Source: Candidatus Uhrbacteria bacterium
GTDB lineage: Bacteria; Patescibacteriota; Patescibacteriia; UBA9934; GWF2-40-263
Direction of reading: 5' to 3'
DNA: 48,465 bases
Assembly (NCBI GenBank): GCA_016844925.1
Contig: JAERTI010000053.1
Location: 1-48,465 of the forward strand
Shown here: one piece after another, positions 36,259 to 46,663 of the stretch
How the letters are laid out: each line of letters opens with the position of its first letter
How positions within the stretch are numbered: the first letter of the stretch is position 1
The notes under the pieces: generated by a model
What the model saw: only the letters and a program-made list of their open reading frames with translations
The model's database searches: none
What the model was told of the DNA's origin: nothing
Program-made: the position numbers and the translations under genes

Positions 36259-36747
36259 TTACGGATTGAGCACCGTCTCGTTTTCGTCGAGGAGCTCTGT
36301 TGCCGTGCGGCCCGTGTACTCTTGATCTGAAATGAACCATCGTTCACAGGTGGGTTCAAGGCAGGCTTGTAGGGCGATGGTGTACTCCGTGTCAGGTGTA
36401 AGATCAGAGAGGTCGAGACTCACTCGGTCATGTTCACCGGCTTCTGTGCGAGTGAAGTCTGAGGTTGGGTCACTAATGGTGATGAGAAAGTGATTATATT
36501 TTTTCTCGGGCTGTGACCACTCTGCTCGTAGGTACGTTGATGATCCCACGGTCTCACCATCGATCTCTTGTGGCTGAAAGGGAAGAATGCTGATTTGAGC
36601 GTCGAATGTTTCAGAGGCACCTTCGTAGAGGTGTGTGTGAAATTTGCCCGTAGAGTCAACGGCAGGTGGGCGTGCACCGAGCCAGATAAGGTAGCCAATG
36701 AGTCCGATAAGGATCACGATAACGAAAATGCGAAGAGGTTTGTTCAT
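36259..36747 (-). CDS. Membrane-anchored fibronectin type III-like protein
   Basis: N-terminal TM; W..P, LSDLTPDTEYTIALQAC FN3 signature. Confidence 0.75.
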   Translation of the reverse strand: MNKPLRIFVIVILIGLIGYLIWLGARPPAVDSTGKFHTHLYEGASETFDAQISILPFQPQEIDGETVGSSTYLRAEWSQPEKKYNHFLITISDPTSDFTRTEAGEHDRVSLDLSDLTPDTEYTIALQACLEPTCERWFISDQEYTGRTATELLDENETVLNP

Positions 36748-36786
36748 ATGTTCAACATCCTAACATACAAGAAAGAAATGTCTGAC

Positions 36787-36815
36787 TTGACGAGGGTGGG
36801 GGCTATCGTTATGCT
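36787..36815 (+). promoter_or_regulatory. Sigma70 promoter of leader peptide/GNAT transcript
   Basis: TTGACG-17 nt-TATGCT. Confidence 0.7.
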
Positions 36816-36825
36816 TTAACCAGCT

Positions 36826-36873
36826 ATGACAAGCCTGATTCACAACACAGCTTGGTGGCACGGTCTCCGTTAG
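36826..36873 (+). CDS. TrpL-like attenuator leader peptide MTSLIHNTAWWHGLR
   Basis: 15-codon ORF with tandem TGG TGG at codons 10-11, between a promoter and a terminator. Confidence 0.78.
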   Translation: MTSLIHNTAWWHGLR

Positions 36874-36930
36874 GAAGGCCGATGGATTTGTTTATTGCAA
36901 ACCGCCCTTGGTCTTCCAGGGGCGGTTTTT
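36861..36930 (+). promoter_or_regulatory. Transcription attenuator (1:2 pause hairpin, 2:3 antiterminator, 3:4 terminator)
   Basis: cggtctcc pairs with ggaaggccg; ggaaggccga pairs with ttggtcttcc; aaaccgcccttgg-tctt-ccaggggcggttttt terminator. Confidence 0.78.
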
Positions 36931-36999
36931 GGTTGGGAGCGCGTTTTGATGGGTCGAGATGCGCTCCCGGGCAACAACTTCCCCGGAAAGGAGAACGCT

Positions 37000-37653
37000 A
37001 TGTTCAGGGATGCTCTTGAGGGAACTGGGGCGTTTGATCCGCCTACGGACAAGGAACGGACGCAGCGTACGCTGCAGTACATCTGGTGTCGTCCTGCGCT
37101 TGATGAGGTGGTGGCTCTGACGGCTGCTGCTCTTCATCGGGAAGTGGACGATGTGCTGACGCAGGATGTCTACGAGCACCTCGACCAGGCCGATGAGATG
37201 CTGAGTGTCTACCAGGGTTCGACGTTGGTCGGTTACATGCTGCTGACATTCCCCCTTGAGGGGCTCGTCTACATCGCCGGCACGATGGTCGACCCAAAGT
37301 TCCATGGCGTCGGCATCAAGGCACGGGCGACGCAGGTGGTCATGAACAGGCACAGCGACCGACGCTACTTCGCCGGCCGCACGCAGTCGTCCATCGTCTG
37401 GGCGAGTGTGACTCGTTCGGCCAAGGTCGTGCTGCCAAGCACGCAGGGGAGGGAGGTCGAGTCCGAGATGGTCGAGATGCGTCAGCGTCTCGTCGAGGGG
37501 CTCGGCATGGACGACGCCATCCACGAAGGATTCTACGGCGGGCCGCTCTACGGTGAGAAGCCCACGCACCGCGACGAAGCGGTGCAGGCCTGGTGGGACA
37601 CCTTCATCAACTTCGAGCGCGGGGACGCCGTGCTCTACATTGCGAGGCTCTAA
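37000..37653 (+). CDS. GNAT-fold acyltransferase-like protein, GC-rich
   Basis: LVGY, YIAGTMVDPKFHGVGI resembles GNAT motif A (V.P..R/H.G.G); AAGGAG SD before ATG at 37000. Confidence 0.75.
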   Translation: MFRDALEGTGAFDPPTDKERTQRTLQYIWCRPALDEVVALTAAALHREVDDVLTQDVYEHLDQADEMLSVYQGSTLVGYMLLTFPLEGLVYIAGTMVDPKFHGVGIKARATQVVMNRHSDRRYFAGRTQSSIVWASVTRSAKVVLPSTQGREVESEMVEMRQRLVEGLGMDDAIHEGFYGGPLYGEKPTHRDEAVQAWWDTFINFERGDAVLYIARL

Positions 37654-37663
37654 GTGGGGCCCT

Positions 37664-37696
37664 GCCGACCAGTACGCAACTGGTCGGTTTTTATTT
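37664..37696 (+). terminator. Intrinsic terminator after GNAT gene
   Basis: gccgaccagt-acgca-actggtcggt-ttttattt. Confidence 0.8.
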
Positions 37697-37945
37697 GTCT
37701 GTGAGCAGATCGAGATCTATATTGAGCAATTCGATCCGGTCGGTGAGAAGTTTCTTTGCATCCATGACTCCTTTTTCGAACAAAGGTCTTCCAAGGAGCT
37801 GTAGGTGAAAATCTAAAATCTCTTCTGCAGCAATCAGGCCCATATCCATATCATGATTCTTCTTAAAGAACGTCTGGATGTGTTCAATCGCGTTTGTTCG
37901 CTGCTTGTCTGACAGGGGATCAAAACCTCGTTTTTGCTTGTTCAT
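37691..37945 (-). CDS. DUF2164-like small protein
   Basis: IQTFF....D.D.GLIAAEEILDF....LG...FEKGV.DA pattern. Confidence 0.75.
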   Translation of the reverse strand: MNKQKRGFDPLSDKQRTNAIEHIQTFFKKNHDMDMGLIAAEEILDFHLQLLGRPLFEKGVMDAKKLLTDRIELLNIDLDLLTDK

Positions 37946-38074: not shown

Positions 38075-38151
38075 GGACCGGTGGTGTAGCTGGTTAACAC
38101 GTCGCCCTGTCACGGCGAAGATCGCGGGTTCGAATCCCGTCCGGTCCGCCA
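38075..38151 (+). tRNA. tRNA-Asp(GTC)
   Basis: Acceptor GGACCGG/CCGGTCC, anticodon arm tcgcc-ctGTCac-ggcga, GGTTCGAATCC T-arm, encoded CCA. Confidence 0.98.
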
Positions 38152-38216: not shown

Positions 38217-38340
38217 CTTTACGTGGCTGTGTCTATGTAGAACGTCAGTGTTCACGTGGCACAGCCATTTTGCACCATTTTCATGTACCGCCTTTACGTG
38301 GCTGTATCTATGAGAACGTCAGTGTTCACGTGGCAAGCCA
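38217..38340 (+). repeat. Two ~45-50 bp direct repeats, each an imperfect hairpin
   Basis: ctttacgtggctgtgtctatgtagaacgtcagtgttcacgtggca (38217-38261) vs ctttacgtggctgtatctatgagaacgtcagtgttcacgtggca (38292-38335). Confidence 0.88.
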
Positions 38341-38360
38341 ACAAGTTTACAATTGCTGAT

Positions 38361-38618
38361 ATGTTCTACGTTTACGTTCTTGAAAGTGAAAGCTCCGGCA
38401 AATGGTACATCGGTTATTCTTCTGGTTTAAGAAAGAGAATCCAAAGACACAATCAAAGTGGAAACGTCTCAACAGCCAATCGTGGGCCATGGGCACTTAT
38501 TTATTACGAAGCTTATATAGATAAACAAGATGCGCTGGGAAGAGAGAAGTTTTTAAAAAGCGGTTCAGGTTGGAGATTCTTGAAGAAACAGATGAGACAC
38601 TACCTTAATTCTGGGTGA
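38361..38618 (+). CDS. Small GIY-YIG nuclease family protein
   Basis: FYVYVL...WYIGYS..L.KRI.RHN, PWALIYYE, A..RE.FLKSG.G. Confidence 0.92.
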   Translation: MFYVYVLESESSGKWYIGYSSGLRKRIQRHNQSGNVSTANRGPWALIYYEAYIDKQDALGREKFLKSGSGWRFLKKQMRHYLNSG

Positions 38619-41984: not shown

Positions 41985-42020
41985 GACGAGAACGGCTACG
42001 TAGAAGCTGTTCTGCTGTGT

Positions 42021-42647
42021 CTAGCGCGGAGCCCCCAGGCGGAGGCGGCGGTCGACGTTGGCGATGGTGGCCATCAGGACGTTGAGGGCCTCGACGGCAG
42101 CGGTGAGCTGCGGAGGGATCCGGTCCAGCTGGTCCATGACGGACGGGTCTCCGTCCATGGCCGCGACCGTGATCTGCGCGTGGCTCTCCTTGATCTGCTC
42201 GAAGATCGCATCGGCGGTCAGGCGCAGGACCTCGATGCCGTTGGTCCACATGGCGACCTTGAGGGCGGGGGTCATGAACTTCGCCAGGTCGGTGTAGCTG
42301 ATGCGCAGGGCCTCGACGGCGCCGTGCGCTCGGAGCGTGGCGCTCCGCTGACGGGTCGGGTCCAGGATGGCCAGCTCGCCGATCAGGTTGCCGACGTCGG
42401 TGATGGGCGGTACGTTGGGGACGGAGTCCACGCGGATGGAACCGCTGGCGAGCACCCAGCACTCGTCGGCGTCGAGCGAGCGCATCTGGCAGATGACGTC
42501 CGACTGCTTCCAGCTGACCGGCGTCGCGCGCTCGGCCATCTCTACGAGCGTTGCCTCATCGAGGTGCTGCCCGAACAGAGAGAGCTTCAGGAGCTCGGTG
42601 CGGGTCGCGAGATCGCCGAGGGTTTCGGCGGTGAAGGACTGGTCCAT
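42021..42647 (-). CDS. Cyclic-nucleotide-binding domain protein with C-terminal helical region, GC-rich
   Basis: LFG.HL, W...DVIC, VLASGSIRV, GELAILD...RSATLRA phosphate-binding cassette; GGAG SD before ATG at 42647. Confidence 0.85.
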   Translation of the reverse strand: MDQSFTAETLGDLATRTELLKLSLFGQHLDEATLVEMAERATPVSWKQSDVICQMRSLDADECWVLASGSIRVDSVPNVPPITDVGNLIGELAILDPTRQRSATLRAHGAVEALRISYTDLAKFMTPALKVAMWTNGIEVLRLTADAIFEQIKESHAQITVAAMDGDPSVMDQLDRIPPQLTAAVEALNVLMATIANVDRRLRLGAPR

Positions 42648-45095: not shown

Positions 45096-45589
45096 AGTTC
45101 TTCTTTAATAATTTTCTCAATGAGCGCTTCAGGTTCCAGTCGAACCTTTAAGCCGCTCTCCAGTATGGTGTCGAACGTTGTGTGATGTGGTCGCACAACG
45201 TTTTTGAATTGAACACCTTTTGATTCAAGATCGCTGACAAGTGTTTCGATCGAATCTTGCTTAGGATAGATCTCGATGTGATCGAATCCGCTGACTTGAG
45301 AGTTGTTGGGTTTTTGATCAGATAGTTCCAAAAACCAAATATCTCCTAGTGAAGTTTTCAGTGGTTGGAGGAATTTAATGTAAGCAATAGGTCGACCTGC
45401 TATAGGGGATTGATGAATGTAGCTTGAATACGTTTCAAATAGAGTTCTGAGATATTCGAACTCTTCTCGGGAGCCGCATTTGTAACAAATGTGATCAGCA
45501 GTTGCTTGGGGTGTTGTGCTGGCGACCCAGGCGTCAAAAAATGTGACAGCTTTTTCTGCATCTAAGCGAAATGAATCGTAGGACATCAT
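45092..45589 (-). CDS. YecM-like VOC/glyoxalase-fold metalloprotein
   Basis: DHICY, I.GRPI, LEL, GFDHIE. Confidence 0.8.
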   Translation of the reverse strand: MMSYDSFRLDAEKAVTFFDAWVASTTPQATADHICYKCGSREEFEYLRTLFETYSSYIHQSPIAGRPIAYIKFLQPLKTSLGDIWFLELSDQKPNNSQVSGFDHIEIYPKQDSIETLVSDLESKGVQFKNVVRPHHTTFDTILESGLKVRLEPEALIEKIIKEEL

Positions 45590-45612
45590 ATGAAGTCTAT
45601 TCTACCTTGTAA

Positions 45613-45638
45613 CAAAAAACCCTGCTGTGGAGCAGGGG
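45613..45638 (-). terminator. Terminator of the dehydrogenase gene
   Basis: Minus strand ccctgct-ccac-agcaggg-ttttttg. Confidence 0.75.
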
Positions 45639-45655
45639 AGCGATCCGTGTGATCG

Positions 45656-46663
45656 CTAGAGGTTGGTCAGCAGGTGGCTGACGTAACCGCTCGTGCTCAG
45701 CGTGCCGCCGGGGAGGTCCCGGGTGCGGTGACGCTTGAGGGTCTCGATGACGCCGAAGCGGAGTGCCTGGGCCAGCTCGAGGTGGCCGACGTGCTCGAGC
45801 AGCATGGCGCCCGAGAGGATCAGGGCCGTGGGGTTGGCCTTGCCCTGGCCGGCGATGTCGTCGGCGCTACCGTGGACGGACTCGAACAGAGCGATCTTGT
45901 CGCCGATGTTGGCGCCGGGGGCGACACCCAGCCCACCGATCACGCCGGCGCACAGGTCCGAGAGGATGTCTGCGAACATGTTCTCGGACACGATCACACC
46001 GAACTGCTGCGGTCGCATCACCAGCTGCATGGCCATGGCGTCGACCAGCAGGTGGTCCGCCTTGATTCCGTCGTACTGCGCCGCCACGGTCTCGAAGGCG
46101 TCCGTGTAGGCGCGTCCCCAGACCTTGTGGATGTTGCGCTTGGTCACCAGGGTCACGCGCCCGATGCCGGCCTCACGTGCGTGGTTGAACGCTCGCAGGG
46201 CGAGGCGATGCATGGCCTCTTCGGTGAAGTGTGCCACCAGGCGCACCTCGCGCGTGCCTACGGGACCCACGGACTCCTCGGAGCAGGCGTAGAGCCCCTC
46301 GGTGTTCTGCCGGTACAGGACGAGGTTGACGTTCTGACTCGTGCCGGGCAAGCCGACCGAGACGGCCGGGCGCACGCCCGCGTACAGGTCCAGCTGCTGG
46401 CGCAGACGGACGTTGACGCTCTTGAAACCGCCACCACCGGGGGTGTTGGTCGGGCCCTTGATCGCCAGGCCGACCTGACGGATCAGGTCCAGGGTCTCCT
46501 CGGGGAGCTCGTTGCCGGTCTCTTCCAGGCAAGCGAGTCCCGCCTTGGCCTTGATCCAGTCGATCTTGCCTCCGGTCATGTGGTCCAGCACCTGACGTGT
46601 GGCCTCCATGACCTCCGGCCCGATGCCGTCGCCGTCGATGTACACAATCCGCAGTCTGTTCAT
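45656..46663 (-). CDS. Isocitrate/isopropylmalate dehydrogenase family, probably NAD-dependent (homo)isocitrate dehydrogenase; GC-rich
   Basis: GDGIGPEV, KGP, SVNVRLR, RQNTEGLY, NMFADILSDL, FESVHGSADDIAG, ANP; AGGAG SD; promoter TAGACA-17-TATAAC. Confidence 0.93.
   Translation of the reverse strand: MNRLRIVYIDGDGIGPEVMEATRQVLDHMTGGKIDWIKAKAGLACLEETGNELPEETLDLIRQVGLAIKGPTNTPGGGGFKSVNVRLRQQLDLYAGVRPAVSVGLPGTSQNVNLVLYRQNTEGLYACSEESVGPVGTREVRLVAHFTEEAMHRLALRAFNHAREAGIGRVTLVTKRNIHKVWGRAYTDAFETVAAQYDGIKADHLLVDAMAMQLVMRPQQFGVIVSENMFADILSDLCAGVIGGLGVAPGANIGDKIALFESVHGSADDIAGQGKANPTALILSGAMLLEHVGHLELAQALRFGVIETLKRHRTRDLPGGTLSTSGYVSHLLTNL

Follow-up and report, generated by a model that had tools for sequence, protein, structure and literature searches.

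Why would a tryptophan-type transcription attenuator stand in front of a gene that encodes a GNAT-fold protein rather than a step of tryptophan biosynthesis? The question is raised by a locus in a 48,465-nucleotide stretch of DNA from a “Candidatus Uhrbacteria” bacterium (assembly GCA_016844925.1, contig JAERTI010000053.1, positions 1 to 48,465 of the forward strand; here called the window), where a short open reading frame (ORF) with tandem Trp codons and a set of mutually exclusive hairpins precede such a gene. Members of the Candidate Phyla Radiation (CPR), also named Patescibacteria, are believed to depend on other cells for their living and to possess few regulatory circuits, and to our knowledge almost nothing is known about nutrient sensing in these organisms. 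The locus very probably works as an attenuator of transcription, ribosome mediated and responsive to charged tRNA-Trp, that acts on a gene of a rare Trp-responsive module of the CPR. What the sequences show directly is the arrangement of the parts, the repeated occurrence of this arrangement, and putative Trp T-boxes in its place in relatives; Trp-dependent read-through is inferred.

All of the parts listed in the initial annotation of the locus, from the promoter, the 15-codon ORF with tandem TGG codons, and helices 1:2, 2:3, and 3:4 to the Shine-Dalgarno (SD) sequence, the GNAT coding sequence (CDS), and its own terminator, were recovered in place (Table 1). The putative promoter hexamers agree with the consensus at 9 of 12 positions in a consensus scan, and a reading by eye finds equivalent hexamers at an equal distance from the leader ATG in close relatives. 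The leader ATG begins 10 nucleotides (nt) past the end of the −10 hexamer, and an SD sequence is absent from that gap. This promoter-ATG geometry fits the earlier description of the ORF as nearly leaderless, and translation of the leader probably takes place on an mRNA that is leaderless or close to it. The antiterminator overlaps the 5′ arm, the loop, and the first two 3′-arm bases of the terminator, whose arms (36899-36911 and 36916-36928) are 92% complementary and whose T run occupies 36926-36930.

We propose that transcription would start a few bases ahead of the leader ATG. When Trp-tRNA is plentiful, the translating ribosome would get to the leader stop codon and cover region 2, upon which the terminator would form and transcription would end; if no ribosome were loaded, hairpin 1:2 would sequester region 2 and the terminator would form too. 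When Trp-tRNA is scarce, the ribosome would stall at the tandem TGG codons and cover region 1. Region 2 would then pair with region 3, the terminator would not form, and the GNAT-fold gene would be transcribed.

Recurrence of this arrangement was assessed in loci that carry homologues of the GNAT-fold gene. From 68 fetched loci (25 from genomes and 43 from metagenomes), 57 with both the gene start and upstream DNA were kept (L026, L057, L058, L061, L065 to L070, and L072 were dropped before the tally for a partial match or missing upstream sequence), and these, together with the window, formed 46 clusters at 90% identity. A leader was defined as an ATG-started ORF of 8 to 45 codons that contains WW, WxW, or WxxW and lies no more than 300 nt upstream of the gene. 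Leaders of this kind precede the gene in 26 of the 46 clusters, compared with 1.0 ± 1.0 (maximum, 5) in dinucleotide shuffles, and other 300-nt segments of the same loci gave 26 leader ORFs in 1,178. Conserved WW leaders are thus present upstream of GNAT homologues, and the trpL-like reading offered by the initial annotation gains accordingly from their number. A terminator follows the leader ORF in 21 of the 26 clusters in a strict scan, and a looser scan adds L004, L017, and L040.

The 11 closest leaders are 15 codons long (16 in L033), have Trp at codons 10 and 11 (one Trp in L002), and also keep the distance to the stop codon; 9 of the 10 closest relatives agree with the window in ORF length and Trp position. 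A covariance model of these close leaders also matches distant ones located before homologues (e.g., in L039, L064, and L013), and it has exactly one match in the window's 1.57-Mb genome, namely, this site. Among the 250 small ORFs with WW or WxW found by a genome-wide scan, 5 are followed by a terminator, and the scan gave no second convincing Trp leader besides the window site. One candidate, on contig C36, was rejected, as it lies inside a 306-amino-acid (aa) ORF, near the 3′ end of that ORF. Among the loci examined, trp biosynthesis genes were never found next to the leader, and for that reason the leader does not appear to be the relic of a deleted trp operon, an origin that had been held open for it at first.

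Leaders are not the only Trp-linked devices associated with this gene family. At least one device, whether a leader, a T-box, or a TrpR-family gene, is present in 40 of the 46 clusters, and two of the remaining six (L002 and L025) have single-Trp versions. Matches to the T-box family RF00230 occur in 6 of the 46 clusters (32 to 63 bits; E values of 7e-4 to 8e-12), where the T-box takes the place of the leader ORF, except in L016, where it precedes the leader ORF. The six putative T-boxes share a single triplet, UGG, at the specifier position; in L016, an A just before it excludes a reading as UUG. Five of the six clusters have UGGC in the T-box bulge, and one (L020) has UGGU. In the tRNAs of the window's genome, which serve here as the reference for the T-boxes of relatives, the discriminator base is G in tRNA-Trp, A in tRNA-Leu and tRNA-Met, and U in tRNA-Thr. 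The UGGC bulges and the discriminator G argue for tRNA-Trp as the putative ligand.

The order in L016 (2579-3000) is a reduced T-box (43 bits), a leader ORF in which WW occurs twice, and the GNAT homologue, and this locus would carry two tandem Trp sensors. T-boxes of the CPR score far under the Rfam gathering threshold, and the window's genome has another example upstream of thrS (L029, 1501-1712, contig C55; 38.8 bits), with an ACC specifier and a UGGA bulge that fits the discriminator U of tRNA-Thr.

The third device is a gene of the TrpR family (PF01371); 16 of the 46 clusters have one immediately upstream on the same strand, 7 of them along with a Trp leader. In L019, L041, L051, and L053, the tail of the TrpR-family ORF has a Trp codon just before a terminator, and attenuation may operate at such tails with the regulator's own ORF as the leader. 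In L008, L009, and L045, the stretch from the promoter-like region to the start codon of the TrpR-family gene contains a shared inverted-repeat sequence, noted by eye, that is a candidate operator. A search for a shared operator among the window promoter, the promoter of the TrpR-family gene on contig C43 of the same genome, and the region upstream of trpS found no common inverted repeat. An apparent TrpR-GNAT fusion in L045 and L046 was rejected, as translation shows a stop between the two genes.

The structural evidence for the attenuator helices is mixed overall. The leader region suggested for folding (here 36815-36945) is strongly structured, with a minimum free energy (MFE) of −51 kcal/mol (z = −3.35) and equally good folds in 0 of 200 shuffles; the unconstrained MFE structure adds a long-range helix between the 5′ end and a stretch past the terminator. 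When the ribosome-covered part of the window leader was masked and the 3′ terminator arm was withheld, the MFE structure was the 2:3 helix (−13.6 kcal/mol). Constrained folds gave the same sequence of states in 11 of 11 close leaders: 1:2 plus terminator for free RNA, 2:3 for the stalled ribosome, and terminator for the ribosome at the stop codon. Folding of the nascent RNA in the stalled state was equaled or bettered by no more than 15 of 300 shuffles in 19 of the 22 leaders that could be tested.

Cognate arms also pair better than arms drawn from different leaders. Mean duplex energies for cognate and noncognate arms were −12.0 and −9.2 kcal/mol for 1:2, −16.0 and −12.7 kcal/mol for 2:3, and −17.7 and −10.2 kcal/mol for 3:4, with the cognate means reached by 6, 1, and 0 of 20,000 permutations, respectively, in a test that could profit from correlated base composition. 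The pairing is register specific, as 75.5% of cells pair at slide 0 versus 38 to 65% at other slides. One region 2 base (alignment column 69; window position 36879) covaries with its region 1 partner (AU 4, GC 3, GU 2) and also with its region 3 partner (CG 3, UA 3, UG 3).

Besides the possible contribution of base composition to the duplex test, several observations weigh against the attenuator reading. The covariation of the hairpins anticipated by the initial annotation is only partly seen: column-wise, the observed pairing of 1:2 and 3:4 was reached by 9 of 500 shuffles and their covariation score by 29 of 500, which is marginal, and for the antiterminator 2:3, the pairing was reached by 436 of 500 shuffles and the covariation by 333 of 500, which is not significant. 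These tests are blunted because three rows are misaligned by ±1 column and because the GGAAG/CUUCC core is invariant; the weakness still stands. RNAalifold on a MAFFT alignment of the leaders recovered part of the terminator and nothing more. Engagement of terminator-arm bases by upstream sequence is clearly above that in shuffles in only 4 of 22 leaders, and in the window, 159 of 300 shuffles were as high. At the gathering score, Rfam matched tRNA-Asp alone in the whole window and no leader family, and the 8 matches in 36700-37100 at E values up to 10 include no leader family either (e.g., PyrR, 21.9 bits versus a threshold of 54). Promoter-like sites occur at 5 per 2.5 kb versus 1.5 expected, and the promoter call taken alone is weak. 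The nearest syntenic relative, L002, has a single Trp codon in its leader, and the window protein itself has 4 Trp among its 217 residues, including a WW pair. All six T-box matches fall below the Rfam gathering score of 93, and in L015, the columns assigned by cmscan itself would read UUG. No device was recognized in 4 of the 46 clusters (L011, L037, L044, and L059). Finally, a TrpR-family neighbor is not by itself counted as Trp specific, because YerC/HisR of Bacillus subtilis, a member of the same PF01371 family, is a histidine repressor (PMC9413887).

Table 1. Positions of the leader elements, the GNAT-fold gene, and adjoining features in the window
Feature	Position	Strand	Details
Putative sigma-70-like promoter	36787-36815	+	−35 TTGACG 36787-36792, 17-nt spacer, −10 TATGCT 36810-36815
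Leader ORF	36826-36873	+	15 codons; stop TAG 36871-36873; tandem TGG 36853-36858 (codons 10 and 11)
Hairpin 1:2 (predicted anti-antiterminator)	36861-36881	+	From MFE folds; region 1 within last leader codons, region 2 from last stop-codon base
Predicted antiterminator 2:3	36873-36917	+	36873-36882 with 36908-36917; 10 pairs including 2 G-U; from constrained folds
Predicted intrinsic terminator 3:4	36899-36930	+	13-nt arms, 4-nt loop, T5; core hairpin −19.8 kcal/mol
Conserved noncoding block	36966-36993	+	5-bp hairpin 36968-36972 with 36982-36986; abuts SD AAGGAG 36988-36993
GNAT-fold CDS	37000-37653	+	217 aa; motifs include RTQS and YGGPLYG
CDS terminator	37664-37688	+	10 pairs, 6 of them GC; T-rich tail
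Neighboring ORF, DUF2164 (convergent)	37691-37945	Opposite to GNAT gene	

Between the terminator and the GNAT gene, the conserved block is also found, by eye, before the start codon in L002 with a 1-nt length difference from the window, and it is considered noncoding because of that difference. A 37-nt imperfect inverted repeat (36913-36949 with 36954-36990) connects the 3′ side of the terminator with the SD region. The public gene call starts the GNAT gene at ATG 36949 (234 aa); the start at 37000 is favored by homologues, one of which shares the first residues after 37000. The gene is monocistronic in the window, because the terminator ends the CDS and the next gene is convergent. The gene upstream of the leader is on the opposite strand and reads away from the site. 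Farther downstream are a tRNA-Asp (GTC) at 38075-38151 and an ORF with a GIY-YIG domain at 38256-38618; L002, L004, and L005 also have a tRNA downstream of the GNAT gene, and a similar small ORF is located upstream on the opposite strand. On this basis, local synteny is conserved.

What does the controlled gene encode? Sequence models detect the family poorly: PF00583 matches the window protein below its cutoff (17.3 bits versus 20.7; E = 0.006), with several homologues passing it, and NCBIfam gives a single weak acetyltransferase match (E = 0.008). An AlphaFold2 model built from 25 sequences (mean predicted local distance difference test score, 91.8) has the GNAT fold, in agreement with the initial description of the CDS as GNAT-like. 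Foldseek relates the model to many GNAT structures with a probability of 1.00, and VIA-align gives Z scores of 11 to 13.8 over residues 20 to 217, in which the GNAT matches are tied and none stands out. A search of PDB sequences with the family profile found nothing below an E value of 0.17, and the ESM Atlas returned generic GNAT clusters and nothing more specific. The pyrophosphate-binding loop for acyl coenzyme A (acyl-CoA) in GNAT proteins has the motif Q/R-x-x-G-x-G/A, and the alignment places a candidate loop of the acyl-CoA-binding type after strand 4 (consensus QGxGIKA; HGVGIKA in the window). Invariant polar residues in the family are D56, H60, R127, T128, Q129, S130, Y179, Y184, and D200.

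The family is rare and patchily distributed. It comprises 42 relatives in 90% clusters; a library of 1.84 billion proteins yielded 532, 214, and 50 representatives at E values of 1e-3, 1e-10, and 1e-30, respectively; and the gene turned up in 5 of the 401 phylum genomes that were sampled. Named family records come from Uhrbacteria, Parcubacteria, Saccharibacteria, and similar CPR groups. The invariant polar residues and the motifs persist in distant members. Three of these that keep the family motifs are fusions, of GNAT with an M20 peptidase in P0141 and of a chorismate mutase (CM_2) with GNAT in P0166 and P0182; a search of 8,000 candidates for longer fused forms found none. The GNAT CDS is more G+C rich than the rest of the locus in all 14 loci examined (the window, L002, L004 to L007, L010, L012, L013, L015, L017, L021, L022, and L025). 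In the window, its G+C content is 0.62 (0.79 at third codon positions), whereas the remainder of the window stands at 0.50 and the genome at 0.53. This excess could reflect horizontal spread or codon selection. Other G+C-rich patches in the window lie at 42001-42500 and 45501-46500 (0.62 to 0.68 versus a background of ∼0.50).

The gene had been described as an orphan or stand-alone acyltransferase gene, which holds for the local gene order, as the window locus has no adjoining deacylase gene; elsewhere the gene is mostly co-oriented with an N-acyl-amino-acid deacylase gene and often with trpS. Among 36 downstream co-oriented neighbors (41 listed minus five duplicates), 21 are AstE/AspA-type deacylases (PF24827), 3 are M20 peptidases, and 2 are class I Trp/Tyr synthetases. 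Two unrelated hydrolase families thus fill the same operon slot. Of the four other phylum genomes with the GNAT gene, two have a deacylase gene directly 3′ of it, and trpS (TIGR00233, above the cutoff) is in the same gene string in L017, L022, L034, L037, and L056. No third conserved gene, such as a racemase gene, was seen in the GNAT-deacylase operons. The other parts of the proposed module would accordingly be a deacylase of the AstE/AspA type (or an M20 enzyme), often trpS, and often a TrpR-family regulator.

In the window's genome, this putative module is split between two contigs, with the GNAT gene and the predicted attenuator on C53 and a TrpR-family gene and a deacylase gene on C43. 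The C43 regulator gene (L027, 1477-1850; PF01371, with a TIGR02531 match of the YerC/YecD type) is the only TrpR-family gene of the genome and has three His codons shortly before its stop. It is followed by a terminator-like hairpin with a T run and then by a gene for a 233-aa AstE/AspA-like protein, which resembles the GNAT-linked deacylases more than the second paralogue of the genome does. Residues H11, E14, H87, R54, and E143 (C43 numbering) are invariant or nearly so in 19 aligned deacylase sequences, an alignment that includes one outlier, L042, which does not belong. These are putative metal and catalytic residues, with zinc ligands assigned by analogy with aspartoacylase.

The window's genome (97.7% complete) has trpS and no match to trpA, trpB, or trpC, and because of this the organism would be a Trp auxotroph that keeps a sensor of Trp charging on a GNAT enzyme. 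Our tentative suggestion, for which we would claim somewhat less than even confidence, is that both enzymes, the GNAT protein and its deacylase partner, work on Trp itself or on one of its close derivatives or analogues and raise the supply of usable l-Trp. A pair of acylation and deacylation steps is the best guess because the usual partner is an N-acyl-amino-acid hydrolase, because two unrelated hydrolase families serve in that position, and because a GNAT-M20 fusion exists. A more specific and more doubtful proposal is that CPR bacteria unable to make Trp possess an unrecognized two-enzyme route, either from a Trp derivative, isomer, or analogue to usable l-Trp or for removal of a competitor of tryptophanyl-tRNA synthetase (TrpRS). 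In such a route, a dedicated GNAT acyltransferase would work with an AstE/AspA or M20 N-acyl-amino-acid deacylase, and both would be induced by uncharged tRNA-Trp through an interchangeable leader-peptide attenuator, T-box, or TrpR-family repressor. If true, this would constitute a new Trp salvage pathway and the first defined amino acid starvation regulon in the CPR. A role for a racemase of the N-succinylamino-acid type is unsupported, as the sole MR_MLE_C match in the genome, in a 421-aa frame, is weak (36.6 bits).

The same regulatory hardware could serve a different trigger, although we consider this unlikely: the signal may be a block in tRNA-Trp charging, imposed by a TrpRS inhibitor or Trp antimetabolite from neighbors or the host, with the GNAT protein acting as a detoxifying N-acetyltransferase (compare those for phosphinothricin, tabtoxin, and methionine sulfoximine) and the deacylase rescuing misacetylated l-Trp. 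Inducible genes for antibiotic-resistant TrpRS stand behind Trp leaders in Streptomyces. The best structural matches include tabtoxin resistance and phosphinothricin/ArsN acetyltransferases (Z scores of 11 to 13.4), but these are generic GNAT proteins with tied Z scores. An accessory, mobile trait would agree with the patchy occurrence of the gene, in 5 of 401 genomes, and with the elevated G+C content of the CDS in 14 of 14 loci; against this, coupling to a deacylase and a housekeeping-type trpS is atypical of resistance cassettes, and antibiotic or mobility genes were not seen nearby.

Slightly less likely again is a protein acetyltransferase, acting on N-alpha or lysine positions, that would retune translation or TrpRS during Trp starvation. 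The link to the deacylase would then be one of shared regulation only, and the deacylase or peptidase would free Trp from peptides. VIA-align ranks RimI and archaeal Ard1 highest (Z scores of 13.8 and 13.3), and one source labels one homologue “RimI-like,” but these scores tie with those of small-molecule GNAT enzymes. The family-specific invariant polar residues suggest a defined small ligand, and the fusions in P0141, P0166, and P0182 point to small-molecule amino acid chemistry.

It is improbable that the leader transcript or peptide is mainly trans acting, as with rnTrpL and peTrpL of Sinorhizobium, or that control is exerted on translation through the hairpin before the SD sequence. Attenuator-derived small RNAs are on record (PMC6614838 and PMC7298713), the conserved noncoding hairpin (36968-36986) abuts the SD sequence, and the inverted repeat described above joins the terminator side to the SD region. 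Against such roles, the covariance model finds no second copy in the genome and no obvious target logic, and most leaders retain the terminator and its T run; trans or translational roles would supplement attenuation and not replace it. The least credible alternative, already disfavored, is a chance small ORF before an ordinary terminator without regulatory function, e.g., an insulator after the divergent upstream gene: small WW ORFs are common (the 250 noted above) and promoter-like hexamers are weak evidence, but only 5 of the 250 precede a terminator, the other candidate examined (on C36) is intragenic, the upstream gene reads away on the other strand, and the ORF recurs before the same gene family in far more clusters than the one or so expected, with a terminator after most.

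The interest of the attenuator reading lies in the convergence of a textbook attenuator, putative Trp T-boxes, and TrpR-family genes on a rare, uncharacterized GNAT family and a deacylase in genomes without trp biosynthesis. The outcome is a concrete, testable regulon and a candidate new Trp-handling reaction. In the full-text literature searched (supplementary files lay outside the search), we found no account of Trp attenuators or of a GNAT-deacylase module in the CPR, and the literature on N-acetyltryptophan deacetylase and aspartoacylase, searched with the same limit, did not describe this system.

Comparison with known systems places the locus closest in design to trpL of Escherichia coli. 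Both have a short leader ORF with adjacent Trp codons and a terminator before the regulated gene; the mutually exclusive 1:2, 2:3, and 3:4 helices predicted for the window correspond to those of trpL, as does the predicted geometry, in which the stalled ribosome covers region 1 and the ribosome at the stop codon covers region 2. Unlike trpL, the window leader matches no Rfam leader family, is nearly leaderless and without an SD sequence, and belongs to the CPR; its target is a gene for a GNAT-fold protein and not one for trp biosynthesis, and its genome has no trpA, trpB, or trpC match. For the enzymes, the nearest parallels are acyl protection and acyl-cycle pairs, e.g., the d-to-l pathway of N-succinylamino-acid racemase, ArgA/ArgE, EctA/DoeB, and aminoacylase 3 acting on N-acetyl aromatic amino acids. 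As in those pairs, the GNAT gene here adjoins (and in P0141 is fused to) a gene for an N-acyl-amino-acid hydrolase; unlike in the N-succinylamino-acid racemase pathway, no conserved third gene such as a racemase gene accompanies it.

Mycobacteria are reported (bioRxiv 10.1101/834739) to have leaderless, polycysteine short-ORF attenuators that respond to the amino acid and act on downstream genes. The resemblance to the window lies in a short ORF that is leaderless, or nearly so, and is rich in a single amino acid; they differ in sensing cysteine rather than tryptophan, in belonging to Actinobacteria, and in having cysteine-related operons as targets. The T-box of B. subtilis rtpA (yczA)-ycbK senses uncharged tRNA-Trp (PMC10327191; also referenced in PMC2494555). 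There, as here, a tRNA-Trp charging signal would drive a nonbiosynthetic gene, and relatives of the window locus carry a putative Trp T-box in the same position; the rtpA product is anti-TRAP, a regulator of TRAP, whereas here the target is a GNAT-fold family with a deacylase partner. The PF01371 genes found upstream in 16 of the 46 clusters relate the system to the TrpR and YerC/YecD (HisR) family, in which, given the histidine repressor YerC, Trp specificity is not implied. The locus, as read here, would show that leader-peptide attenuation of a predicted leaderless type exists in the CPR: the trpL design as a mechanism is already known, and what is new is its target and its lineage.

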